Assembly: GCA_964426135.1 (NCBI GenBank)
Contig: CAYRPN010000018.1
Coordinates: 65-64,064, forward strand
DNA length: 64,000 nt
Direction of reading: 5' to 3'
Source: an uncultured Phycisphaeraceae bacterium
Lineage (GTDB): Bacteria; Planctomycetota; Phycisphaerae; Phycisphaerales; Phycisphaeraceae
Shown: in pieces, positions 8,456 through 62,550 of the stretch
How positions within the stretch are numbered: the first letter of the stretch is position 1
Layout: each line of letters opens with the position of its first letter
The notes under the pieces: generated by a model
Databases searched by the model: none
What the model saw: only the letters and a program-made list of their open reading frames with translations
What the model was told of the DNA's origin: nothing
Position numbers and translations under genes: made by a program

Positions 8456-8530
8456 TCTGAGATGAGAGCAGAGGCGTGGGTGCGCTGCAAGAGGAGCGGG
8501 TGAGTAGGTGAAGTGCTGACGGTGAAGGGA

Positions 8531-8650
8531 TTGCAAATTGAAAATTGAAAAATGCAAATTGAAAATTGTTAGGACAATGAGTGCCAATCGGGCAGTGGTC
8601 CCGGCAATCCGCAATTTTCAATTTTCACTTTTCACTTTTCAATTTTCAAT
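8531..8650. repeat. Foldback with AT-rich tandem-repeat arms (TTGAAAA/TTGCAAA units vs complement)
   Basis: The left arm at 8531..8568 and the right arm at 8612..8650 are imperfect reverse complements built from 7-8-nt repeats. Confidence 0.75.
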
Positions 8651-8674
8651 ATTCCGAATCTCGACTCATCCCGC

Positions 8675-10716: not shown

Positions 10717-10734
10717 GGAGTGCTCGGGGGAAAA

Positions 10735-11010
10735 GGGTTTAGGGTTTAGGGTTTAGGGTCTAGGGTGTAGGGATTGCGGGATTCGCTTGCGCGCATGGCC
10801 TGTCGGTGTCAGACCAAACAAGTCAAAATAGCGAATGCAAAATGCAAAATGCAAAAGTCAGAGCAAAGCCACAACGCAACGTTGTCTGACTTTTGCATTT
10901 TGCATTTTGCATTGACTATTCCGACTTCCTCCGGATCGCCACGCTCAGGACAAAAGGCGACGATCAGAAAACCCCGCACCCTACACCCTACACCCTAAAC
11001 CCTAAACCCT
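10735..11010. repeat. Nested foldback: outer (TTTAGGG)n-like arms, inner (AATGCAA)n hairpin
   Basis: The outer G-strand at 10735..10772 (GGGTTTAGGGTTTAGGGTTTAGGGTCTAGGGTGTAGGG) pairs with the C-strand at 10977..11010. The inner hairpin arms are at 10833..10863 and 10886..10914. Confidence 0.85.
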
Positions 11011-12137
11011 CAGAACCTCACCCGCACGCCGAACGTCAGCGCCCCGAACGCATGCGTGCCGTTCTGGCCTTCGAACTGTCGGCTGAGCACGGTCTGCGAA
11101 TAGGTCGCGTGCAGGTCGAAGCAATCCGCCCGCCACGCGATGCCGATGCCCGCCTGCGCTTCGCCGACGAAAGTTTCCGCCTCGGCGCCGCGGCTTTTTT
11201 CGAAGTTGCTGCCTTCGATGAACATGTCGTGCTCGACGATCCGCCCACCGATCCGCGCGAAGCCATACACCGTCAGCGCCCCTGGCTGGCCAAAACCATT
11301 GGCGGTCAGGTCGGCGATGCGGCTGGGGCCGAAGTCGTCCGGCAAGTTCCAGCCGACGCGCACCAGCGCACCGCCTTCCAGATGCCGCTGCGCCAAACCC
11401 AGCGCCAGGCCCACCTGCGGAATCACCTGGAATTGCAGGGGATTGGCAGCACTTTCGCCGGCGGGCGTCGCCATTGGCGCAGGCGCGACGAAGCCCTGGC
11501 CGGTCCATGTCGGATACGCGGGCTTGTCGCCGAACTTCCATTTCTTGCGGAAGTAAAACTGGATCACCGGCTCGTCGCCCAACTGCGTGTCCCAGCCCTG
11601 CGGGTCCGGCTCATCGAAAAAATCATGCACGCCCGCCTGGATGTCGTCGGCGTACGACGATGGGCCGACCACGCCGGCGTTCACCTCGACATGGTCGAGC
11701 GTGTCCGCATTGGATCGCTCCCAGAAACCAGCGAGATACAGGTAGCCGGAGTAGGGATGATCGTTCAGCGGCGGATTGGCCTGCGTGATGTCGTTGGCGG
11801 TGTTGATGTGATGGCCCAGCGCGATGCCGAAGGCGCGGTGGCCGGCGGTGAAATCATCGAACGCCGGCAGGAGGTCGATCAGCTGCGCCGGCTCGGTGTC
11901 GCGCAGCGTGAAGCTGGCGACGAAGCCGTTGGTGTAGTAGCGATCGGTGTTGTGGTTGGGCTTGAGCACGGTGCCGTCGTTTTCCCAGTGCAGCGTGAGC
12001 AGCCAGAGCGTGTTCTCCGGCTTCTTCGATGCGACAGCCGGCGCGACATCCTCGGCCGCGGCGACGCCTGAAAGCAGCAACGTGACCATTCCGATTTGTT
12101 TCAGCACAGCAGCACCTCCAGATTCCCGGCGAAGCAT
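11010..12137 (-). CDS. Outer-membrane LpxR/DUF2219-like protein (putative lipid A deacylase family)
   Basis: Signal peptide. WENDGTV..NTDRYYTNGF resembles the END..DR.YT.G N-terminal signature I associate with DUF2219. The C-terminus ..FGVRVRF ends in Phe, as beta-barrel OMPs do. An alternative ATG lies at 12089. Confidence 0.5.
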   Translation of the reverse strand: MLRRESGGAAVLKQIGMVTLLLSGVAAAEDVAPAVASKKPENTLWLLTLHWENDGTVLKPNHNTDRYYTNGFVASFTLRDTEPAQLIDLLPAFDDFTAGHRAFGIALGHHINTANDITQANPPLNDHPYSGYLYLAGFWERSNADTLDHVEVNAGVVGPSSYADDIQAGVHDFFDEPDPQGWDTQLGDEPVIQFYFRKKWKFGDKPAYPTWTGQGFVAPAPMATPAGESAANPLQFQVIPQVGLALGLAQRHLEGGALVRVGWNLPDDFGPSRIADLTANGFGQPGALTVYGFARIGGRIVEHDMFIEGSNFEKSRGAEAETFVGEAQAGIGIAWRADCFDLHATYSQTVLSRQFEGQNGTHAFGALTFGVRVRF

Positions 12138-12348: not shown

Positions 12349-13611
12349 CTACGAAGCAACAGCAGCAACAACATCGACCAACTGCCCCGGCGCATCATTC
12401 CGCAACACCTGCTCCAGCGCATCGACTTCGTTCGTCGGATCGAATCGAACATGCATCAGCGCCGCCAACTGACCGGCCGCCAGCGTGCCGCGACGATCGT
12501 GCCCCAGACTCAGCGCCATCGCGCCGTTGATCGTGGCCATTTTCAATAGCGTCCGCGGATCAGTCCGGTCCCGGCGAAACAGGTGCCGCATCTGCGGCAG
12601 GATGCCCAGCGGCTGCGGCTCATACGCGGGCTGGCAGATGATCGAGTCGGTCCCGAGGCAGACATTGATCCCCGCCGCGAGCATGTCGCGGTAGCGGTGA
12701 TCGCGATGGCCGAAGTAGTCGGATGCGATGGGGCAATACGCAACGGCGTGGCGGGTCTGCCGGAGCAGATCGAGATCGGCATCGCTGGTGTAGTTGCAGT
12801 GGGCGAGCACCCAGGGCTCGCAGCTTTGCTCGTGGGCGAGGTTGGTCAGGAAGTGCGAGATCGGCGATGTGTTCGTCGGCTGAATCGTCTCGTCCCATTT
12901 GCCCAGTCGCTTCAGCAGTTCCGCGAACGGCCCGGTCGCAGCGCGGACGAACATCGCCTCCTCCGGCGTCTCCGCCAGGTGCGTGCTGGGTATGCCGAAC
13001 CATGGATCATTCGCAAAACGGTAGACCTCCGCGCCGGCTGAGTACGGAGCGTGCGGCTGCAGGCCGATCTTGATCGTGCGCGGCAGGTTCGCTTTCGTCT
13101 GCTCCTCCAGGAGCGACATCTGCATCGCCCACGCGCGGCGGGCCGCATCCTGACCGGCCTTGCCGATGCCGAAGCACTCCAGCCAGCAAGTGCCCGCCAG
13201 CCACAGCGCCGGCTCGGCGAACATCCTCGCCCGCGCCGCAGCCGGGCTGCCCGCGATATCGCCGACGCAGTCCACGCCGGCTTCCTTCGATATTTTTAAT
13301 CCGTGCCGCAGCGCACTCGTGATGGCCGCATCGTCGCGCGGGCGCTGGCGAATCACCATCTCGATCCAGCCGATGAAATCGCCTTCGTACGGTTGGCGGG
13401 CAATGTCAGTCAGGTCGAGGTGTGCATGGGCATTGACCATCGCCGGCATCACCACGCTGTCGCGAAGATCAACCACGCGGTCCGGTGTGCCGACGATTTT
13501 TCGCACATCGCGTTCCTCGCCCACCGCCACGATGTGGCCGTCGCGCACGGCCAGTGCGCCTGGCCGAGCGCGGACATCGGCGGCGTCGAGAACCGCACCG
13601 GCGCGAATCAG
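12349..13611 (-). CDS. Amidohydrolase superfamily protein (chlorohydrolase/deaminase-like); start uncertain
   Basis: Metal-binding NAHAHLDL, HLAETPEE, HCNY and GTDS motifs are present. There is no ATG near the conserved N-terminus, so I place a tentative CTG start at 13611 (..LIRAGAVLDAADV). The ORF's upstream 96 codons translate tandem-repeat and REP DNA. Confidence 0.7.
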   Translation of the reverse strand: MIRAGAVLDAADVRARPGALAVRDGHIVAVGEERDVRKIVGTPDRVVDLRDSVVMPAMVNAHAHLDLTDIARQPYEGDFIGWIEMVIRQRPRDDAAITSALRHGLKISKEAGVDCVGDIAGSPAAARARMFAEPALWLAGTCWLECFGIGKAGQDAARRAWAMQMSLLEEQTKANLPRTIKIGLQPHAPYSAGAEVYRFANDPWFGIPSTHLAETPEEAMFVRAATGPFAELLKRLGKWDETIQPTNTSPISHFLTNLAHEQSCEPWVLAHCNYTSDADLDLLRQTRHAVAYCPIASDYFGHRDHRYRDMLAAGINVCLGTDSIICQPAYEPQPLGILPQMRHLFRRDRTDPRTLLKMATINGAMALSLGHDRRGTLAAGQLAALMHVRFDPTNEVDALEQVLRNDAPGQLVDVVAAVAS

Positions 13612-13616
13612 GATGA

Positions 13617-14019
13617 GCGGGGAAGGAGGCAAGGGGAGGGGAAGGGGGAAGCGGGAAGGAGGTAGAGAAGGTAGAGGAGGTAGAGAATACTCGAACGTGC
13701 GCGGTCGCCGTTTAGCGACGCGGCTTGCCGCGCTTCGGCGCGAGCGAATCAAGCAAATAGTAGACGTTTTCGACGGCAGACATCCGTCGATAGAATTGAA
13801 TCCAGGTGTTCTTCGCACCGATGGCGATGCGCCGATCACGAAGCGCGGCCGGCGAATCGCCGATGTGGGACGACTCGCTCGCCGCCGCAGGCGCGGCAAG
13901 CCGCGTCGCTAAACGGCGAGCCCGCGCATCCGAATATTCTTTAACTTCTTCTCCTCCTTTACCTCCTCTGCCTCCTCTACCTTCTCTACCTCCTCTACCT
14001 CCTTCTCTCCCCTTCCCCC
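13617..14019. repeat. 403-bp foldback / MITE-like element with ~95-bp terminal inverted repeats
   Basis: The left end is (GGTAGAGAA/GGAGG)n..TCGCCGTTTAGCGACGCGGCTTGCCGCG. The right end is its reverse complement, CGCGGCAAGCCGCGTCGCTAAACGGCGA..(CCTCCTCTACC)n. The element fills the divergent amidohydrolase/moaC spacer exactly. Confidence 0.8.
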
Positions 14020-14478
14020 ATGCCCGACCTCACCCATCTCGATTCGCAAGGCCAAGCCCACATGGTGGATGTGGGGCACAAGCCGGTCGTTCGCCGCACC
14101 GCCGTCGCCGCCGGTGATTTCGTGGCGGCCAAGGCGACGTTGGATCGGCTGCTCGCCGGCAATCTGCCCAAGGGTGAAGCGCTGGCGGTCGCGCGCATCG
14201 CAGGCATCGCCGCGGCCAAGCGAACCGACGAACTGATCCCGCTGTGTCATTCGCTGCCGCTGGATCAGGTGTCGGTGGATTTCGCACGTGTTGCCGACGA
14301 TCGCCTGCGCGTCACCGCCAGCGCATCGGTCAGCGCGAAGACCGGCGTGGAAATGGAAGCGCTCACCGCGGTGACGATCGCGTGCCTGACGCTCTACGAC
14401 ATGACGAAGGCGATCGACAAGGCGCTGCGCATCGAGGGCGTGCATCTGGTGAAAAAGACAAAAGAGAATGCCGTTTAG
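14020..14478 (+). CDS. moaC: Cyclic pyranopterin monophosphate synthase MoaC
   Basis: ATG start. ..LTHLDSQGQAHMVDVGHKP.., ..LIPLCHSLPL.., ..TGVEMEALTAV..LTLYDM.. are MoaC hallmarks. Confidence 0.9.
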   Translation: MPDLTHLDSQGQAHMVDVGHKPVVRRTAVAAGDFVAAKATLDRLLAGNLPKGEALAVARIAGIAAAKRTDELIPLCHSLPLDQVSVDFARVADDRLRVTASASVSAKTGVEMEALTAVTIACLTLYDMTKAIDKALRIEGVHLVKKTKENAV

Positions 14479-14721: not shown

Positions 14722-15363
14722 TCACCCTTCCCCTGCGCCATCCAGCTTCAATGCCACAATCACCCGCTCCACTGTTTCCTCGTCGTACCCGCGCCGCGCC
14801 AGCAGGCCCGCCAGCTTCCGGCCCCGGCTCGGCGGCGGCACGCGGCGCAGGCGCACCAGGCGCTGTTTCGCCAGGTGCAGCGCGTCCTCGAAACTGCTGG
14901 ATGCGGAATGCTCGCTGACCAGCTTGTCGATCAGCTTCTTGCCCAGCCCGCGCTCGCGCAGCTTCTGGCGGAGCAGGCGCGGGCCCGCGGACTTGTTGCG
15001 GATCAACTCGTCGATGAGCTGTCCGCCCAGCGCTTCATCATCCACCGCGCCGATGCCGCGAAGGCGCACCAACGCCCGGCCGATCAGTTCATCATCGATG
15101 CCCTCCTCGCGAAGTCGGGCGGTGAGCTGTGCTTCGGAGAGCGGCTTGCGGTTGATGAGCTTCAGGGCCTTCTTCATCGCTCCGTCGAACGCGGCGGCAT
15201 CTTCGACGCGCTGGCTGAGCGTTTCGGTCCATGCCAGATCGAGTTCGAGCCGCAGCGCTTCGACCTGCTGGCGTGAAAGGGTGGCGACGGATTTGCCGTC
15301 GACCTTGATGATGCGTCGGGTGGGATCGCTGCGACTGTGGGAGATGGCGGTAATTCGTTCCAT
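14722..15363 (-). CDS. recX: Regulatory protein RecX
   Basis: Trimmed to the ATG at 15361-15363 (MERITAISHS..). The repeated three-helix modules (..KALKLINRKPLSEAQLTARLREEGIDDELI.., ..GPRLLRQKLRERGL.., ..LLARRGYDEETV..) are typical of RecX. Confidence 0.75.
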   Translation of the reverse strand: MERITAISHSRSDPTRRIIKVDGKSVATLSRQQVEALRLELDLAWTETLSQRVEDAAAFDGAMKKALKLINRKPLSEAQLTARLREEGIDDELIGRALVRLRGIGAVDDEALGGQLIDELIRNKSAGPRLLRQKLRERGLGKKLIDKLVSEHSASSSFEDALHLAKQRLVRLRRVPPPSRGRKLAGLLARRGYDEETVERVIVALKLDGAGEG

Positions 15364-15372
15364 GGAGCGGGG

Positions 15373-15484
15373 CGAGGGACCGAGGGACCGAGGGACGAAG
15401 GGACGGAGGGACGGAGGGACGGAGGGACGGAGGGACGGAGGGACCAAGGGACGGAGGGACCAAGGGACCAAGGGACGGAGGGAC
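15373..15484. repeat. Tandem 9-nt repeat (GGGACNRAG) x ~12
   Basis: Direct reading. It abuts the recX start codon, so the mRNA-sense strand is C/U-rich. Confidence 0.9.
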
Positions 15485-19457: not shown

Positions 19458-22400
19458 TCACGCCAGACCAACCGCCGCGGCGTCGCGGTCGCTGAGCATG
19501 CCTCCGGTCTCGCCTTCGCCGCGATGCTTCACGGTGCCGTCGCGCTTCCAGCTTCGCTCGCATCGCGGCTCGTTGCGAAGATCGATCACCTCGGCGACGC
19601 CGAAGGTCGCTTCGCTGTGGCCGTGACCCTCCGGGGCGCTGGGCTTCATGGCGACAAACTCGAATCGGCTGATGCCGCAGAGATCCGCCAGGTCCACCCG
19701 GCTGAACGCGTCGAGGCACGCATCCGCGCCGGTCACCCGCAGGCCCATGTCCAGCGGGTTGTCCACGCCCTGCGTCTGCCGCGCGGTTTCCAGCGATTTC
19801 ATCCAGGCCGCGCGACCGTCCATCAGGAGCGGCCAAAGCTCGAACACCGGCACGATCATCGGCTGCGGCAACAGCTCGAGATGCACGCTCTGCGCCGCGG
19901 TCACGTTCTTAAGCTCGCGCCCGTGCAGCGACGCCCACGCCTCCTCCGCCGTGTAAGGCAGGATCGGCGCGAACAGGCGAATCACCGCGCTGGCGATTTC
20001 GTACATCGCCGTCTGCGTGCGACGGCGGCGCGGGCTGTCGGGCTTGTCGCAATACAGGCGATCCTTCGTCGCCGCCAGATAAATCGCCGACAGCGTCTCA
20101 TTGCAGAAATGGAAGATGGATTCGCTGACGACGCCGTACTGGAAATGCTCGTAAGCGTGCCGGCACTTGCGGATCAGTTCGTTGAGCTGCTCCATCGCCC
20201 AGGCGTCGATGCTGGTGGCGTCCTCCAAAGCCCAGGCATGGCCATGCCTGGGCTTTTCAAAATCGCCCAGATTGCTCAGCAAGAACCGCATCGTGTTGCG
20301 AACCTTGCGATACTCTTCGCCCGCCAGGTCGAAGTAGCTCTTGTCCACCTTGATGTCGTTGTCCGTGTTCAGCGAGCACACCCACCAGCGACACACATCC
20401 GCGCCGTAGTCCTTGAGCAGCACATCGACTTCCAGCGTGTTGCCCAGCGACTTGCTCATCTTCTTGCCGTCTTTGTCCACCATGAACCCATGCGTGAGCA
20501 CCGTCTTGAACGGCGACCGCCCGGTCACGCCCAGGGCCGGCAGGAGCGAGCACTGGAACCAGCCGCGATGCTGGTCGGAGCCTTCGAGGTAGAGATCGGT
20601 GACGGGGCGCTGCTCTTTGACGGGATCGTGTGCCAGGCCGCGCTGCACCATGACAGCGTTCCAGGATGAGCCGGACTCGAACCAGACATCGAAGATGTCG
20701 GAAGCTTTGCGGAGCGCGGCAAAGCCCAGGCATGGCAATGCCTGGGCTTTGCCTTCGCAGCGCAACCACTGCGGCGCCGCGGGATCATTCGCCGAGTCGT
20801 ACTCCGCAAGCAGGTCTTTCGGCTCCAGTTTGAACCATGCGTCCGATCCATGCTTGCGCACGACATTGGCGACGGCCTGCACGCTGGCTTGCGTGAGCAA
20901 GAACTCGCCGGGTTTTTCGCCAAAGAACGCGGGGATCGGCAGGCCCCAGGCGCGCTGACGCGAGAGGCACCAGTCCGGCCGCGATTCGAGCATGCCGCGC
21001 ATCCGGTTGCGGCCCCATTCGGGGAGGAACTGCACGTCCTTTTCCGTTTCGTGCAGGGCGAGTTGGCGAAGGGTGCGCGATGTTGCGGCGTCCGCGCGGG
21101 GCAAAGCCCCGCGGCTAAACGCGGCAGGGGCGAACGGGGAATCCACGCCCACAAACCACTGCTCCGTCGCCCGGAAAATCACCGGCGTCTTGCTGCGCCA
21201 GTCGTGCGGATAACTGTGCGTGAACTTGTGATCCAGGAGCAGATGCCCGCTGGCGCGCAGCTTCTCCAACACGATGCCGTTGGCGTCCCACACGCTCTTG
21301 CCGCGCAGCCAGGTGGGCGCGGTGTCGTCGAAGGTGCCGTCGGCGAGCACGGGGCAGTAGATCGGCAGCTTTTCGCGCAGGCCGGTCTGGTAGTCCTCCG
21401 TGCCGTGGCCCGGCGCGGTGTGCACGAGGCCGCAGCCGTCTTCGATCGTGACATAGTCGGCGGCCATCACGGTGTAGAGCGCGTCGAGTGTGGCGCCGCC
21501 AGGGCCGGTCCCCTGGCCCTTGGCCCCTGGCCCCTGGCCCTCTTCCACAAACGGATGCACGTACCGCATGCCCACGAGGTTGAAGCCCTCCGTCACGCCG
21601 ACGATCTGCATCGCGTCGTCCTTCATCGACGCGGCAAGCTTGCCCGCCAGTTCCTCCGCGACGACCGCAAGCCTGCCCTTGATCCGCACCAGCGCGTAGC
21701 GATACGACGGATGCACCGCCACGCCCATGTTGGCCGGCAGCGTCCAGGGCGTCGTCGTCCAGATCATGAAATGCACCGGCTCGCTTCGCAGCGGCGAATC
21801 ATCGCCGACGAACTCATCGAACAAACCATCGCGCGACTGCGGCGCGACCTCGAACAGCACGTACACGCTCGTGTCCTCGCGGTCCTCGTATTCCAGTTCC
21901 GCCTCCGCCAGCGCGGTCTGATTCGCGATCGACCAGTGCACTGGTTTGAGCGCGCGATAAACGAGACCTTTGCCCACGAGGTCGGCGAAAACCTCCAGCG
22001 TCGCCGCCTCAAACTCCGGCAACATGGTCAGGTACGGATGCTCGTAATCCGCCAGCGTCAGCAGCCGCTGCATCTGGCCCATCTGCAGCTTGATGAATTT
22101 TTCCGCGTACTTGCGGCAGTCCCGGCGGACGGACATGGCAAAAGGAAGGGCCGAGGGAACAGGGCCGAGGGCCGAGGGGTCGGAGGATTTCGGATTTTGG
22201 ACTTCGGATTGCGGATCGGGCTTGGTGCCTTGCCCCTCGGTCGCTGGGTCGCTGGATCCCTCGGTCCCTTTCCCTTGGCCCTCGGCCCTCGGCCCTTGGC
22301 CCTTTTCTTGCCTTTCCTGCATCACCTTGTGCTCGATGGGCAGGCCGTGACAGTCCCAGCCGGGGATGTAGGGCACGTCGTAGCCGAGCATGGTCTTGCT

Positions 22401-22673
22401 GCGCACGACGAGATCTTTCAGGACCTTGTTGAGCAGGTGGCCCAGGTGAATCGAGCCGTTGGCGTAGGGCGGGCCGTCGTGGAAGACGAAGCGCTTGCTC
22501 GGATCGTCCGTCCCGCGGGCGGCGCGGATGGCTTCGTACAGCTTCTGCTCCTGCCATCGCTTCAGCGCGGCCGGCTCGTTCTGCACGAGATTCGCCTTCA
22601 TGCCGAAGCTGGTCTTGGGCAGGTTCAGCGTGTCCTTGAACGATTTCTTTTTGGGAGCGGTGGTGTCGGACAT
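19458..22673 (-). CDS. ileS: Isoleucine--tRNA ligase, carrying three low-complexity in-frame insertions
   Basis: ATG start. HIGH-type motif (..PYANGSIHLGHLLNK..), GWDCHGLPIE, KMSKSLGN and a C-terminal Zn-like region are present. Total length is 1071 aa including the inserts at 22140..22313, 21486..21545 and 21075..21137. Confidence 0.95.
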   Translation of the reverse strand: MSDTTAPKKKSFKDTLNLPKTSFGMKANLVQNEPAALKRWQEQKLYEAIRAARGTDDPSKRFVFHDGPPYANGSIHLGHLLNKVLKDLVVRSKTMLGYDVPYIPGWDCHGLPIEHKVMQERQEKGQGPRAEGQGKGTEGSSDPATEGQGTKPDPQSEVQNPKSSDPSALGPVPSALPFAMSVRRDCRKYAEKFIKLQMGQMQRLLTLADYEHPYLTMLPEFEAATLEVFADLVGKGLVYRALKPVHWSIANQTALAEAELEYEDREDTSVYVLFEVAPQSRDGLFDEFVGDDSPLRSEPVHFMIWTTTPWTLPANMGVAVHPSYRYALVRIKGRLAVVAEELAGKLAASMKDDAMQIVGVTEGFNLVGMRYVHPFVEEGQGPGAKGQGTGPGGATLDALYTVMAADYVTIEDGCGLVHTAPGHGTEDYQTGLREKLPIYCPVLADGTFDDTAPTWLRGKSVWDANGIVLEKLRASGHLLLDHKFTHSYPHDWRSKTPVIFRATEQWFVGVDSPFAPAAFSRGALPRADAATSRTLRQLALHETEKDVQFLPEWGRNRMRGMLESRPDWCLSRQRAWGLPIPAFFGEKPGEFLLTQASVQAVANVVRKHGSDAWFKLEPKDLLAEYDSANDPAAPQWLRCEGKAQALPCLGFAALRKASDIFDVWFESGSSWNAVMVQRGLAHDPVKEQRPVTDLYLEGSDQHRGWFQCSLLPALGVTGRSPFKTVLTHGFMVDKDGKKMSKSLGNTLEVDVLLKDYGADVCRWWVCSLNTDNDIKVDKSYFDLAGEEYRKVRNTMRFLLSNLGDFEKPRHGHAWALEDATSIDAWAMEQLNELIRKCRHAYEHFQYGVVSESIFHFCNETLSAIYLAATKDRLYCDKPDSPRRRRTQTAMYEIASAVIRLFAPILPYTAEEAWASLHGRELKNVTAAQSVHLELLPQPMIVPVFELWPLLMDGRAAWMKSLETARQTQGVDNPLDMGLRVTGADACLDAFSRVDLADLCGISRFEFVAMKPSAPEGHGHSEATFGVAEVIDLRNEPRCERSWKRDGTVKHRGEGETGGMLSDRDAAAVGLA

Positions 22674-22950
22674 GGCGAGAAGTCAGGAGTGAGGAGTGAG
22701 AATCGAGGAGTGAGGCGTAGTCGCCGGCGAGCCGGGCCGTGTCGGCCCGACGAATTTCGTTTGCAACTTCCAAAACGCAACAAGCCCCGCCGCGTGGGCA
22801 GGGCTTGCGAAGGATCGAACCACCATCGCGGAACCCTGCGGCTAGGGCGTGCTGATGATAATGCGAATGGCGGCGGGTTGTTGGGGAAGGCGCGGGAGCA
22901 TTGGTCGAAAGTGTAGGCGCCGTGGAGCATGTTCGCGAGTGCAGACACGG
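22674..22950 (-). promoter_or_regulatory. ileS 5' leader (~275 nt) with internal terminator-like hairpin; possible attenuator/T-box-like element
   Basis: The leader lies between the upstream gene's own terminator (22951..22982) and the ileS ATG. It contains ATTATCATCAGC, GATGGTGGTTCG and a hairpin followed by a U-rich tail. Confidence 0.4.
22768..22807 (-). terminator. Terminator-like hairpin inside the ileS leader
   Basis: On the minus strand, CAAGCCCTGCCCACGCGGCGGGGCTTG is followed by TTGCGTTTTGG, ~105 nt upstream of the ileS start codon. Confidence 0.45.
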
Positions 22951-22982
22951 AAAAAAGAAACCTCTCCCGAAGGAGAGGTTTC
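22951..22982 (-). terminator. Intrinsic terminator downstream of the PEP-CTERM gene
   Basis: On the minus strand, GAAACCTCTCC-TTCG-GGAGAGGTTTC is followed by TTTTTT. Confidence 0.75.
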
Positions 22983-26704: not shown

Positions 26705-26933
26705 CACAAACCTCCTGGCGAACAAAAATAGTGTGACTCACTCGATCAATCCTGTGAGATTGATCGGCTGGGCAGCGCCGCCATCTTGCTCGATTCGAGA
26801 TGACTAACCAACCGGGGATTCCCTGACCCAAACGCCGTGCCGCATCCGTCCGTCAGTCCCTCGCTTCGCCTGGGGACAAACGGGAAGTGAACTCGTGCAA
26901 GAACGACTGAGCTGATTGGCACATGGCCATTGC

Positions 26934-29886: not shown

Positions 29887-29950
29887 CGTCTCTCCGTCTC
29901 TCCGTCTCTTCGTCTCTTCGTCTCTTCACCCCTCCGTCCCTTCTTCCACT
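29887..29950. repeat. Tandem 8-nt repeat (CGTCTCTY)n immediately 3' of sdhB
   Basis: Direct reading. It is roughly complementary to the GA-rich array 5' of sdhB (30738..30850). Confidence 0.85.
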
Positions 29951-30735
29951 CACTTCCCCATGAAAAACCGCTTGATCGCGTGCACCGTGGTCTGCCTGCC
30001 GATGGCCGCGATGGCTTCGGTCAGCGGGACTTCCTTCGGGCACACCTTGATGCAGTTCTGGGCGTTGCCGCAGTCGGTGATGCCGCCGGCGCCCATGACC
30101 GCGTCGAGGCGTTCGCCCTTGAGCGTGGCGCCGGTTTCGTGCATGTTGAAATAGAGCGCCTGTCCGAGCACCTGGGCGCCGACGAAATCGTTGTCGAGGG
30201 TGAACTGCGGGCAGGCTTCGAGGCAGCAGCCGCAGGTCATGCAGCGCGACAGGCCGTAGCGGAGCTCCTGCGAATCGGGCGATTCGTTGGGGCCGGCGCC
30301 CAGCGAATGCGTGCCGTCGATGGGGACCCAGCCCTTGATGCGGATCAGGTTGTCGAACATGCGCTGACGATCGACCCACAGATCGCGCACGACGGGGAAC
30401 TTGCTCATCGGCTCCAGCACGATCGGGTTGGCCGCGGTGCCGAAGCCGTCGCGCTCCAGTTCATGCACCAGCGTGGAGCAGCTTTGCCGGGCGCGACCGT
30501 TGATCACCATGGTGCACGCGCCGCACACCTCTTCGAGGCAGTTGCAGTCCCAGACCACCGGCGTGGTGCGCTCGCCGTTGACGGTCACCGGATTGCCGGC
30601 GATGGCGAGCAGGCAACTGATGACGTTCGCCTGCGGCCGGCGCGGCACGTCGAACTCCTGCACGTACGGCGAGCCGTCGGGCTTGTCCCGGCGAGTGATG
30701 CGGAAGCGGACGGTATTGGTCGTGGTGGCGGTCAT
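29950..30735 (-). CDS. sdhB: Succinate dehydrogenase / fumarate reductase iron-sulfur subunit
   Basis: ATG start. 2Fe-2S Cys context (..DCNCLEEVCGACTM..), CMTCGCCLEACP and CGNAQNCIKVCP cluster motifs are present. Confidence 0.9.
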   Translation of the reverse strand: MTATTTNTVRFRITRRDKPDGSPYVQEFDVPRRPQANVISCLLAIAGNPVTVNGERTTPVVWDCNCLEEVCGACTMVINGRARQSCSTLVHELERDGFGTAANPIVLEPMSKFPVVRDLWVDRQRMFDNLIRIKGWVPIDGTHSLGAGPNESPDSQELRYGLSRCMTCGCCLEACPQFTLDNDFVGAQVLGQALYFNMHETGATLKGERLDAVMGAGGITDCGNAQNCIKVCPKEVPLTEAIAAIGRQTTVHAIKRFFMGK

Positions 30736-30737
30736 GG

Positions 30738-30850
30738 GGAAGAGGACAGAGATCAGAGGTCAGAAGACAGAGGTCAGAGGTCAGAAGACAGAAGACAGAA
30801 GTCAGGAGTGAGGAGTGAGGAGTGAGGAGGTAGGAGGTAGGAGTGAGGAA
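30738..30850. repeat. Tandem GA-rich repeats (GAAGACA / GAGGTCA / GGAGTGA units) immediately 5' of sdhB
   Basis: Direct reading. It contains a 23-nt string (30797..30819) identical to one in the ileS leader (22678..22700). Confidence 0.85.
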
Positions 30851-30904
30851 TCGGGTTGTCTTGTCGTTTAGCGCGGGCCCGAAGGGCCCGGCTCGCCGCG
30901 TCCA

Positions 30905-35489: not shown

Positions 35490-35601
35490 GGTGGCTGTCC
35501 TTTGCGGATTCGCCGCGGTTAGTCGATCGGGGAAGCAAGTATAGTGCCCGCGCGAAATCGGTGCCAAGCGGGGAATCCCCGTGCGGCGATCCGTGTCGAC
35601 A

Positions 35602-35742
35602 TTTAGCCGGCGGGCTTGCCCGCCGTGGGCGCTCGTTCGAGCTTCTTCGCGAGTATTGAACCAGTTGTTCGAAGAGGCGACGAGGGAGAACTGGATGCAA
35701 GCGTTTGCCGACGGTTCGCGGCGGGCAAGCCCGCCGGCTAAA
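35602..35742. repeat. REP-E palindrome pair
   Basis: Same arms as at 28511..28650. Confidence 0.85.
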
Positions 35743-35744
35743 TG

Positions 35745-35835
35745 GTTCAATCTCTTCGTCTCTCCTTCTCTCCGTCTCTCCTTCTCTCCGTCTCTCCTTC
35801 TCTCCGTCTCTCCGTCTCTTCCTCCTTCCCTTCCC
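35745..35835. repeat. Tandem CU-rich repeats (CTCTCCGT/CTCCTT units) in the hisI leader
   Basis: Direct reading. It is followed by TATAAT (35841..35846) and the hisI ATG at 35870. Confidence 0.85.
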
Positions 35836-35869
35836 TCACTTATAATCCGCGCCCCCTGGAGCACCCCCC

Positions 35870-36274
35870 ATGAGCGACAACGCCCGCGAAACCAGCCTGA
35901 CCCTCGACGTGAAGTTCGACGACAAGGGACTCGTGCCCGCCATCGTGCAGAACATCGACACCGGCGAGATCCTGATGGTCGGCTGGATGAACGACGCTGC
36001 GCTGAAGCAAACCCTGGCGACCCGCAAGGCCACGTTCTATTCGCGGAGCCGAAACAAGATGTGGGTCAAGGGCGAGGAGAGCGGCCACATCCAGGAAGTG
36101 GTCGACGCCCGCGTCGACTGCGATCAGGACGTCATCCTCCTCCGCTGCAAGAGCCACGGCCCATGCTGTCACGTGGGCTATCCAAGCTGCTTCTATCGCT
36201 CGGTTGATCCGGCGGGCGGACTCAAAGTGGTCGCAGAAAAGTCCTTTGATCCCAAGTCGGTCTACAAGAAGTGA
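35870..36274 (+). CDS. hisI: Phosphoribosyl-AMP cyclohydrolase
   Basis: ATG start. ..GLVPAIVQ....GE.LM.GWMN..AL..T......FYSRSR...W.KGE.SGH.Q.....R.DCD.D..L.. is the HisI signature, including the C-terminal Cys cluster. Confidence 0.9.
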   Translation: MSDNARETSLTLDVKFDDKGLVPAIVQNIDTGEILMVGWMNDAALKQTLATRKATFYSRSRNKMWVKGEESGHIQEVVDARVDCDQDVILLRCKSHGPCCHVGYPSCFYRSVDPAGGLKVVAEKSFDPKSVYKK

Positions 36275-38634: not shown

Positions 38635-40059
38635 TTACGCCACGCGATGGCGGCGACGGCGACCCGCCAGCAGGCCGGCGACGATCGCGCCGAGGCTCGC
38701 CGTGGCGGGCTCGGGGATGGTCGTCAACTCCAGCAGGCGGTCGTTGCCGCTGCTGGGGTGCTGGATGTTCACGTAGGCGACATTCGGGTCGAACGGGCTG
38801 AAGTACAGACCCGTCAATTCCGAACCCAAGGTCCCGTTGCTGGCCCAGCGGCCGATGGACTCGGCGACGCCGTCGTTGTTCGTGTCGAACACGAACCAGA
38901 TGTCGTTCTCCACGCCGCCGTTGGTGTCTTCAATGACGTAGAGGTTGCCGTCGGCGTCGAGCGCCAGGTTGTCCGGGTTGTTGAACGCGCTGCCGACCGC
39001 CAGTCCGGTGGCGGCGTTGATCGTGCCGGTGCTCAGGAAGCGGTTGATGTTGCCGGTGGTCAGGTTCATCTGCCACACGTCGTCGGTGGTCGTCGCGGTG
39101 AAGTAGAGCACTTCATCGCCGTTGGCCAGGCGCTTGATCTGCATGTCCTCGGGGCGTTGGTAGTCGGTGCCGACGAACGCGGCGAGGTTGGCCGTGGCGC
39201 GGGCATCGACGGAGGAAATGCCGTTGGGATCGGTGATGGTCACCGCGCCGGGCAGGCCGGCGCCGGTCGTGTCGGTGAAGGGAATCCAGGTGAACGCGCC
39301 CTGCGCGTTGGCCGCGTTCGCGCCCAGGCCGTCGCCGACGCGGAGGACCGAGGTCTGGCCCGCGTCGAAGAACGTGGGGACGCCGGGGGTCTGCGAGGTG
39401 TACTTGTAGATGTTGCCGCCGTTGAGTTCATCGATGAAGTACATGTTGCCGGCAGCGTCAAACTGAATGCCTTCATGCGACGTGCGCGGAATCACGTTGC
39501 GGTGCAGCGTGTTCGCTTGCGCGACAGCCGGGGCCGCCAGCGGCGTGGTCAGTTCGAACAGCCGGCCGAAGGGAGAGGCGTTGTTGTTCGGAACGCTGTT
39601 CCAGCTTTCCTCAGCCGTGATGAACGTGCCCCACGGCGTCCAGTAGGAGGCGTCGAACGCGACGTGGCTGTTGATCGCCGGCGCCGTGCCGGGGCTTTGG
39701 AAGATCGTCTGCGTCACGCCGGTTTGCAGATCGGTGCGCTGGATGCCGGACGAGCCCGTCTCGAACACGGTGAACAGGAACCGACCCGCCTGCGGGCCGG
39801 TCTCGTTCAACGTGATCATGTCCCAGTTGCCGCTGTTGGGCTGGCCGGCCGCCAGTTGCTCGTTGCGGCTGGCGATGGACCGCTGCGCGAAGTTGCCCGC
39901 CGAGAGCGTCAGCGGAGTCGCTTCGTTGCTGGTCGGGCCGGCCGACGCCGGCAGCGGCGTGAAGTTGTCGAACTGGGTTGCGTTGATCGCCAGAGCGGGC
40001 GACACACAGGCGGGCACACAAAGTCCCACCAAAGCCAACAGATTGCGTCTCTTCAACAT
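38635..40059 (-). CDS. PhoX/DUF839-like beta-propeller protein with PEP-CTERM anchor
   Basis: Trimmed to the ATG at 40057-40059, preceded by GAGGAGG. Signal peptide present. ..TPWGTFITAEE.. resembles the PhoX/DUF839 core. The C-terminal IPEPATASLGAIVAGLLAGRRRR is a PEP-CTERM signal. Confidence 0.6.
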   Translation of the reverse strand: MLKRRNLLALVGLCVPACVSPALAINATQFDNFTPLPASAGPTSNEATPLTLSAGNFAQRSIASRNEQLAAGQPNSGNWDMITLNETGPQAGRFLFTVFETGSSGIQRTDLQTGVTQTIFQSPGTAPAINSHVAFDASYWTPWGTFITAEESWNSVPNNNASPFGRLFELTTPLAAPAVAQANTLHRNVIPRTSHEGIQFDAAGNMYFIDELNGGNIYKYTSQTPGVPTFFDAGQTSVLRVGDGLGANAANAQGAFTWIPFTDTTGAGLPGAVTITDPNGISSVDARATANLAAFVGTDYQRPEDMQIKRLANGDEVLYFTATTTDDVWQMNLTTGNINRFLSTGTINAATGLAVGSAFNNPDNLALDADGNLYVIEDTNGGVENDIWFVFDTNNDGVAESIGRWASNGTLGSELTGLYFSPFDPNVAYVNIQHPSSGNDRLLELTTIPEPATASLGAIVAGLLAGRRRRHRVA

Positions 40060-40446
40060 GATCAAACCTCCTCAAACAGGGTGAAAGAAATTGCCCTTGA
40101 CACGTTTCCCACCGCACTCGTCACTGAGTCCGATCAAAGGGAATTGGGCGAGCGGGGATTAGAACGAGGCTGCGTGAGCGGCGCGCTTCGCCTTGGTGAT
40201 AACCGCGTGTCCAAAGGGTCAGGATTCGATTGGCGCCCGGCCGGGGAGGAAGACCCGCAGCACGTTTTTTGATGGAAAGACAGCCGCTGGTGCGGACAGG
40301 TGGCCGTGGGGGATCTGCTGCGCGGAGAGTTGAAAGGTGACGGCCGGGTCAAGCACGCGATCGCACCAGACGTGCCCGCGATCGGCGATGATGGGTTCGA
40401 GGTTGTCGCCGGCGAGCAGGGTGTGCCCAATTTTCCGGGGGCTTGG

Positions 40447-61987: not shown

Positions 61988-62550
61988 CCTTGCCGCCAAC
62001 CGGCGCCATGCGGGTCCCGCCGCAGGCGATCCTCGCCGGCGGCTCCACGCTCCCCGAAGAAGTGCAGGCCGACCGCGATTTGAACGTTGGCAATCATCAA
62101 GAGGAAAAACAAGAATGTCCCATTCTTCTTTCGTGTCCCTTTATTCTTTCGCCGGGCCACTACCGCCTGCGCGTTCCTGGCGGCTGACTGTTACCTTCCG
62201 TACCGATCGGACAATGTAAGGTAGCTATGCCGCCGGGCTGCTGGCGGGGCTGGGCTGTTCTTTGAGCAGTCTGCGCTCGACTTGCGGAGGAGAACGGCGG
62301 AGGCGGGAAGTGGCCGGAAAGTGTCCTACCTTTCTGGCAGTCAAAAGGTAAGTGTCTGCTTTGGCGATGGTTAAGGCCGATTTTCACCGCCAGGGGTAGG
62401 TGGCCGGCCACTGGGGGGCGATGCTGGGCAGGACATGGACGCCAAGCGAGGCATAGAATCCCGGCATCGCCTGACCTGAAACTCGCCGGCGATTTGACCC
62501 GACCTTGGCCGGCGAGACAATCCACTCACCCTAACCACAGGAGGTTTGCC

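Follow-up and report, generated by a model that had tools for sequence, protein, structure and literature searches.

Pyrimidine-rich repeat leaders in a Phycisphaeraceae bacterium: probable arms of polarized tandem-repeat hairpin elements

The genes ileS and sdhB of an uncultured Phycisphaeraceae bacterium are preceded by pyrimidine-rich tandem repeats that end a few nucleotides before the start codon, and similar repeats precede several other genes in the same 64,000-nucleotide stretch of contig CAYRPN010000018.1 (contig C18, hereafter the window). We analyzed these leaders together with the rest of the 6.25-Mb assembly, which has a G+C content of 63%. The leaders are probably (at a probability of about 0.6) the 3' arms, paired or orphaned, of polarized tandem-repeat hairpin elements. 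Such arms would be tolerated flush against start codons in a lineage that is mostly independent of the Shine-Dalgarno (SD) sequence, a G-poor arm being harmless or mildly favorable there. The leaders are read as element arms because the polarity of the arrays is symmetric at starts and stops, because the arms are paired, and because cassettes carrying PF05635 genes have the same design. There is no evidence here that the C/U repeats are a dedicated ribosome-binding signal.

Genes were called with a self-built codon-usage caller that is blind to upstream sequence, giving 4,124 genes at a coding density of 79%. Using Tandem Repeats Finder (TRF), 1,625 non-redundant arrays of period 7 or 8 were detected in the whole assembly, with 273 distinct canonical units. 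The intergenic arrays number 1,109 of period 7 and 444 of period 8. Coding sequence contains 414 arrays of period 7, and for this period the density in spacers is 10 times that in coding sequence. A few unit families recur at 30–107 loci, the top ones being AAATCCG, AAGGGCC, and AACGGCT.

The arrays are strongly polarized with respect to the genes that they adjoin. Within 30 nt before start codons, 138 arrays are pyrimidine-rich in the sense direction and 10 are purine-rich (binomial p = 6e-30). Within the same distance after stop codons the orientation is reversed, with 203 sense-purine and 15 sense-pyrimidine arrays (p = 3e-43). The rule holds after stops in convergent spacers, where there is no start codon (49 sense-purine, 8 sense-pyrimidine), as well as before starts in divergent spacers (31 sense-pyrimidine, 2 sense-purine). 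Orphan arrays follow it too, with 74 sense-pyrimidine and 6 sense-purine arrays at starts, and 103 sense-purine and 11 sense-pyrimidine arrays at stops. Enrichment at the spacer edges is modest: 241 arrays are observed at starts against 190 expected, and 369 at stops against 221. The distinctive property near starts is thus the orientation, which forms half of a rule that is symmetric between starts and stops. An initial annotation of the window had noted pyrimidine repeats before many starts, and the spacer density of period-7 arrays and the orientation near starts show that they exceed chance.

The arrays are also paired. An inverted partner is present in the same spacer for 530 of the 1,089 spacer arrays, compared with 21 in the control, and the purine arm comes first in 166 pairs as against about 6 (∼96% of pairs). 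The distance from the array end to the next ATG is mostly 5–15 nt, whereas the purine arms touch the stop codon. A complete foldback precedes the HIBADH-family gene of the window (Table 1). Its pyrimidine arm has a perfect partner, and the fold predicted for the whole spacer has an energy of −194.8 kcal/mol (z = −17.5). An AT-rich heptamer hairpin is nested inside; together with a second one at 8530–8654, it resembles a bidirectional intrinsic terminator made of tandem repeats. Among the 138 start-proximal arrays, a complementary G/A array lies in the same spacer for 56 (41%). The suggestion that G/A arrays act as pairing partners of the C/U tracts can stand for these, but not for ileS and sdhB, which have no inverted G/A array in their spacers. 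Pairing between the 5' and 3' flanking arrays of one and the same mRNA was considered as well and rejected (7 of 51 genes compared with 7.5% by chance, not significant).

Nine genes in the genome belong to PF05635 ("23S rRNA intervening-sequence protein"). All nine are co-oriented with their neighbors and are situated between or within protein-coding genes, none of them in 23S rRNA helices. Complementary arrays of 7- or 8-nt units flank seven of the nine. Where the purine content of the flanks is decisive, the purine arm starts at the stop of the gene upstream, and a C-rich linker connects the pyrimidine arm to the next ATG. The cassette on contig C44, for example, reads TGA-t-(GGTTGGG)7 ... 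(CAACCCC)7-gcccctctccc-ATG. The arm units of the cassettes, AAGGGCC, AACGGCT, AAGGGACG, and others, belong to array families that are among the most frequent in the assembly. PF05635 genes from other genera of the family show a like layout, including complementary-array flanks at three loci of relatives (L110–L112). Relatives rich in PF05635 genes tend to have a higher array density, a trend that is only suggestive because the sample is small and partly biased.

Two of the cassettes occupy particular positions. A complete one, with octamer arms and open reading frame (ORF), lies at C43:17531–18047 inside a 3.8-kb ORF (C43:15910–19713), which remains open through the cassette in a different frame. 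An in-frame foldback within ileS (22140–22313) is a smaller counterpart. The two closest IleS relatives also contain heptamer arrays inside ileS, at positions other than here (locus L001, 1277–1341; locus L002, 3982–4088). The second cassette is situated between atpH and atpA (C205:4276–4808). In a relative of another genus (G004, locus L138), the atpH-atpA spacer contains the end of a similar ORF and a heptamer pyrimidine arm, and the cassette may be either an old insertion at this site or the result of recurrent targeting. The spacers of the relatives are too diverse to show what the cassette displaced or to assign the linker to host or element.

The intervening sequences of 23S rRNA in Coxiella and Leptospira, which carry S23p/PF05635 genes, are excised by RNase III through a stem formed by their flanks (Warrier et al. 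2016, PMC4990558). The present cassettes resemble them: inverted flanks make up a stem whose loop carries a PF05635 ORF, and this ORF lies within a transcription unit of the host and points the same way. They differ in lying between or inside protein genes, in having tandem arrays of 7–8-nt units as flanks, and in that most copies are empty. The leaders could be processing sites, in which both arms pair into a long stem that RNase III cuts in the manner of these intervening sequences, and the downstream cistron is freed with a short C-rich leader. The genome has an RNase III gene, the complete foldback is predicted to be very stable, the PF05635 cassettes share its design, and RNase III excises intervening sequences of the PF05635 type in Coxiella, but the 41% of start-proximal arms with partners do not include those of ileS, sdhB, and recX. 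Foldbacks are also found in divergent and convergent spacers, where one spanning transcript is not needed, and the inner terminator-like hairpins would halt transcription ahead of the pyrimidine arm. Processing as the purpose of the leaders is distinctly unlikely.

The leaders of ileS and sdhB share a 23-nt string, AGAAGTCAGGAGTGAGGAGTGAG, as had been noted initially. It is exact at 22678–22700 and 30797–30819, and shuffled sequences are expected to give no match. Each of these copies is embedded in a tandem array of heptamers, and a third genomic copy is present at C146:4932–4954. The sdhB array is built from the sense units CTCACTC, CTACCTC, CTGACTT, CTGTCTT, and CTGACCT, and is followed by cctcttcccc-ATG. 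At all three loci with the 23-mer the unit order is the same, GATTC-(CTCACTC)n-CTGACTT-(CTGTCTT)n, and at two of the three the array is preceded by a repetitive extragenic palindrome (REP)-like element. Because unit order and flank recur at the three loci, the shared string is best read as copies of one dispersed arm family and not as a regulatory connection of the two genes. The unit concerned, GAGGAGT, is the ninth commonest array family (32 arrays), of which 12 arrays lie after stops and 10 before starts. Unlike the PF05635 cassettes, the two leaders themselves contain neither an ORF nor a partner arm, and they are unpaired in predicted RNA folds.

The start codon of ileS is fixed by the alignment of its relatives, which begins at residue 1. 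These relatives are metagenome-assembled genomes of other Phycisphaeraceae genera, with IleS identities of at most 65%. In other genera, the leaders of the ileS and sdhB orthologues contain no array; most also have no SD, and many end in CC-ATG. Upstream of ileS there is a terminator-like hairpin (Table 1) and a second one at 22982–22957. The two would place the ileS promoter within ∼107 nt of the ATG, so that the array is probably transcribed. No sigma-70 promoter match was found near ileS or sdhB, and neither gene has a −10 box at the leaderless position. We infer that at both genes the array forms part of a transcribed 5' untranslated region, where it would be permissive and not required. 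The ∼150 nt between the two terminator-like hairpins (22810–22957, minus strand) may encode a small RNA, with no match in Rfam; the single match of an Rfam scan of the window was a tRNA.

The REP-like element, a GC-rich hairpin followed by GCTAAA(C/T)GG, has 484 genomic copies, often as inverted pairs, and occurs in the window at 13690–13950, 35596–35745, and 30860–30895. It was considered as a promoter feeding the arrays and set aside as REP-like, with 244 copies facing gene 3' ends compared with 166 facing starts. The motif TAnnnT is not enriched just upstream of arrays either.

Tandem heptamers at gene boundaries have been described before. In Xanthomonas and Nostoc, heptamers of the type GGGAATC or GGGGA(C/T)T have their G-rich strand antisense up to 50 bp before an ORF and sense up to 50 bp after a stop, with no function established (Rehm et al. 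2015, PMC4692102). The polarity rule is therefore already published for those repeats; the link to PF05635 is unreported there. The two systems are alike in their spacer-enriched tandem 7-nt units, the same polarity, inverted pairs, and housekeeping neighbors. The Xanthomonas and Nostoc repeats have one dominant, quadruplex-capable unit of the GGGNATC type that favors four copies, whereas the units here are diverse and many have no G-tracts (e.g. GAGGAGT). In the present genome, moreover, the arms are usually paired and nested and end in a start-specific C-run.

Heptamers in heterocystous cyanobacteria, the short tandemly repeated repetitive (STRR) sequences, are reportedly dispersed intergenic tandem repeats of several unit types, and the arrays here are like them as far as that description goes.

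The diversity of units could suggest that the arrays are local simple-sequence repeats formed by plain slippage, with no identity as elements, and oriented by selection against purine arrays near starts, where these would bring false SD motifs, start codons, or G-quadruplexes. Purine arrays would indeed introduce GGAG and GTG, and an excess of heptamers is a known bias of bacterial simple repeats (PMC4692102). Such selection does not account for a polarity that is just as marked beside stop codons and within convergent spacers. Slippage is also at odds with the recurrence of a few unit families at many loci, with the composite unit order and flank common to three loci, and with paired arms that flank PF05635 genes; we find it very unlikely. 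A role at the level of DNA is highly improbable, be it a G-quadruplex, i-motif, or cruciform that insulates supercoiling or transcription, or phase variation through copy number. The arrays do lie at gene boundaries, and many purine units carry GGG every 7–8 nt like the quadruplex-forming repeats of PMC4692102, but many others (GAGGAGT, ATTGAAA, AATGCAA) are incapable of forming quadruplexes, and the neighbors are housekeeping genes (ileS, sdhB, moaC, recX, hisI), unlike contingency loci.

To place the leaders in their translational context, the SD core was defined as four bases at −20 to −4. It is present in ∼31% of genes (31–33%) compared with 8.6% in a control window. The 16S rRNA in the assembly covers positions 9–873 only, and the 3' end with the anti-SD lies outside it. 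The motif TAnnnT peaks at −12 from the start (151 genes compared with a background of ∼20), and the ∼310 genes with such a box starting at −16 to −11 are probably leaderless. In leaders with a start-proximal array, the SD core is at background level (10.6%), and a leaderless-type −10 box is found in only 5 of 189. All leader classes favor C at −1 (60%) and −2 (50%). The initial annotation had proposed that two classes of initiation region coexist. At least three are seen, namely SD genes, leaderless-type genes, and the rest, but the absence of an SD does not single out the array leaders because most genes here lack one. SD absence is ordinary in this genome, and the array leaders (∼140–190 genes) are a small subset of the SD-less genes. 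Support for the repeat leaders as a second class of initiation region is only partial.

Arrays that end farther upstream are informative in this respect. Of the pyrimidine arrays ending 30–50 nt upstream of a start, 41% are followed by a −10 box at −12, and among arrays ending at least 15 nt upstream the frequency of a following SD equals the genome average. Arrays extend only as far as the first functional element in their way: an SD, the promoter of a leaderless gene, or else the ATG.

Two features do set the array leaders apart. The predicted minimum free energy of the region from −40 to +40 is −8.9 kcal/mol, compared with −17.6 to −19.7 kcal/mol in the other classes, and the predicted unpaired probability is 0.67 compared with ∼0.49 elsewhere. 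The leaders thus have the properties described for unstructured, SD-independent leaders, i.e. no SD and a weak predicted fold near the start. The second feature is a run of C: 59% of array leaders end in CCC-ATG and 38% in CCCC-ATG, whereas the other classes show 9–14% and 3–4%. The mirror sequence GGG follows only 15–21% of stops (the mirror of the arm terminus, GGGGAAG, is present but weak), and the C-run was on this count rejected as a merely symmetric element end. An extended codon-anticodon interaction, in which C at −1 would pair with position 37 of the initiator tRNA, was rejected too, this tRNA having A37 as is usual. The genome encodes a bS1 protein with six S1 domains (a 643-codon frame on C118). 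In addition to this gene (C118:11236–12738) there is an ORF with four S1 domains (C100:17464–18456).

With these features, the pyrimidine array and its TTCCCC junction could be an active, SD-independent landing pad for the ribosome, bound by S1 or another pyrimidine-binding factor and raising initiation. The low predicted structure, the excess of the C-run over its mirror at stops, the 5–15-nt linker left before the ATG while purine arms touch the stop, and the presence of a six-domain bS1 are what such a pad would entail. A similar proposal has been made for the TAACTGA heptamers that lie a few nucleotides upstream of starts in marine Beggiatoaceae, cyanobacteria, and Bacteroidetes, with S1, Csp, or CsrA as binding partners (MacGregor 2015, PMC4679880). 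In the TAACTGA genome SDs are rare (25%), and rarer in repeat leaders (∼10%), and the downstream genes show no functional pattern (PMC4679880). Those repeats are like the present ones in that arrays lie within a few nucleotides of starts and SDs are rare in their leaders (here 10.6% compared with 31–33%). They are unlike them in consisting of a single conserved unit and in being nearly all direct repeats, with one inverted set, whereas the present genome has many units, a purine/pyrimidine polarity, an equal population at stop codons, hairpin pairing, and inverted partners for half of the arrays. Several observations count against a landing pad here. The same array families are equally frequent after stops, and the polarity persists in spacers that lack a start codon. 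An array may also end ahead of an SD or of a leaderless promoter, the orthologues in other genera have no arrays, and the codon-bias score of array-led genes is no higher than that of the SD class. SD-less initiation needs no CCC-ATG, since just 9% of the other SD-less genes have it. We regard a dedicated landing pad as unlikely.

An S1-type enhancer role, as put forward initially, may fit two observations only, namely the weak predicted folding and the run of C before the ATG. The classical preference of S1 is for U-rich RNA, in contrast to the C-rich leaders here. Planctomycetes are among the phyla with few SD genes, and their non-SD genes fold more weakly near the start, a signal of leaderless or S1-type initiation (Nakagawa et al. 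2017, PMC5397173); unlike the arrays described here, that signal is a compositional trend. It is quite unlikely, but conceivable, that the 3' end of the hairpin, i.e. the G-poor pyrimidine array with its TTCCCC junction, is a portable SD-independent start region encoded by the element itself, perhaps after trimming of the stem by RNase III.

In the reading that we prefer, the leaders being arms of hairpin elements, the element would consist of a purine-rich array of 7–8-nt units, a loop, and a complementary pyrimidine-rich array. PF05635 genes would occupy the loops of such elements, most copies being empty. The elements would lie flush between ORFs, with the purine arm running from the preceding stop (or from a start on the opposite strand) and the pyrimidine arm ending 5–15 nt before the next start; arms would come to touch start codons because the elements fill the spacer in this way. 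Orphan leaders such as those of ileS and sdhB would be empty or half-decayed copies that descend from full hairpins. A G-poor arm would be unable to fold and would be free of spurious SD motifs and of AUG or GUG, and its C-run would match and exaggerate the preference of the lineage for C at −1 and −2. Arms would be tolerated at starts because about two thirds of the genes start with no SD and because the G-poor arm is harmless or mildly favorable. The array-led genes would most likely be translated by the ordinary SD-independent route, with an unstructured leader and the six-domain bS1 available.

Several points weigh against this reading. Composition and the general start context predict CCC before ∼28% of the ATGs (our own arithmetic), and the observed 59% is about twice this. 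The excess of the C-run is start-specific, 3–4 times commoner than its mirror at stops, which hints at selection specific to starts and at an arm that perhaps goes beyond passive tolerance. The reading does not account for the purine-first polarity. No mobility mechanism, target duplication, or transposase was identified for the elements. Descent may have run from cassette to empty hairpin, or a gene may have entered an existing hairpin; nine PF05635 genes stand beside hundreds of empty hairpins. Finally, some called starts are wrong (e.g. those of signal-peptide genes), and the class fractions are approximate.

The remaining leaders of the window are listed in Table 1. Gene names were checked with Pfam, which supports MoaC, RecX, SdhB, HisI, the HIBADH-type dehydrogenase, the amidohydrolase, GTP-PEPCK, PhoX-like, CBM_4_9, and Ysc84/SYLF. 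TRF and inspection of the sequence agree with the initial annotation that SD-less pyrimidine arrays (period 7–9) precede moaC, recX, the HIBADH-family gene, ileS, and sdhB, and that AGGAGG-type sites are present at pckG and the PhoX-like, CBM, and SYLF genes. No inverted partner was found for the recX array. The hisI leader had been placed in the SD-less group in error: between its array and the ATG there are a TATAAT (35841–35846) and a GGAG (35858–35861), and the promoter probably follows the array. The amidohydrolase was rightly seen to have a pyrimidine array before its N terminus, but no canonical start (in-frame ATG, GTG, or TTG) was found between the array and the conserved N-terminal strand LILIRAG (13560–13620, minus strand), and the start codon may be ATC, CTG, or ATT. 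CCUCC, said to occur in several leaders, is present in those of moaC, sdhB, and recX and absent from that of ileS; genome-wide, CCTCC lies within 25 of the 138 start-proximal pyrimidine arrays. The genome, at 6.25 Mb and ∼79% coding by our own caller, has 81 tRNA genes and is much larger than those of its family relatives (2.6–4.8 Mb).

Table 1. Repeat arrays, leaders, and associated features in the window
Feature	Position	Strand	Description
HIBADH-family gene leader, pyrimidine arm of complete foldback	10734..10772	−	Period 7, sense CCCTAAA
Inner AT-rich heptamer hairpin	10834..10913	−	AATGCAA / TTGCATT; U-rich tail, terminator-like; nested within the outer HIBADH-spacer arms
Purine arm, partner of 10734..10772	10977..11023	−	Sense AGGGTKT; begins at the stop of the preceding gene
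Amidohydrolase array	13619..13687	−	Pyrimidine array (in sense) before the N terminus; mirror counterpart of the moaC array on the other side of the divergent spacer
moaC leader array	13953..14003	+	Period 9, CCTCCTCTA, 5.7 copies; then ctccccttccccc-ATG, ATG at 14020
recX leader array	15374..15484	−	Period 8, 13.9 copies, sense CGTCCCTC; 10 nt before ATG at 15363
ileS	19458..22673	−	1071 aa
ileS leader array	22677..22715	−	Period 7, 5.6 copies, sense units CTCACTC/CTGACTT; ends 3–4 nt before ATG at 22673
Intrinsic-terminator-like hairpin upstream of ileS	22780..22808	−	
pckG leader	26705..26722	−	AGGAGG; instance of the SD class
Purine-rich array directly 3' of the sdhB stop	29887..29943	−	Sense AAGAGACG; instance of the stop-side mirror rule
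sdhB	29950..30735	−	261 aa; Fer2_3 domain from residue 11
sdhB leader array	30741..30849	−	Period 7, ∼16 heptamers; ends 5 nt before ATG at 30735
hisI upstream octamer array	35751..35834	+	Period 8; ATG at 35870
PhoX-like gene leader	40060..40080	−	GAGGAGGT; true ATG at 40059
SYLF/Ysc84 gene leader	62531..62550	+	AGGAGGT

If the arms are tolerated passengers, the genome is a case study of an SD-poor lineage that lets repeat elements fill its spacers up to the start codon, and the absence of an SD together with odd repeats is poor grounds for claiming a new signal. Should the unstructured array and its C-run instead promote initiation, they would be a sequence-defined SD-independent start region for the Planctomycetota, whose initiation signals are essentially unknown, and would link translation to a hairpin-cassette family found across genera. 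Start codons beside arms could then be placed more confidently in annotation, and arrays inside ORFs, as in ileS and the 3.8-kb ORF on C43, should not be taken for errors. A portable 3' end, if real, would let a selfish PF05635-type cassette adjoin essential genes such as ileS, sdhB, and atpA and leave them unsilenced, and would represent a new class of initiation signal borne by mobile elements in SD-poor bacteria.

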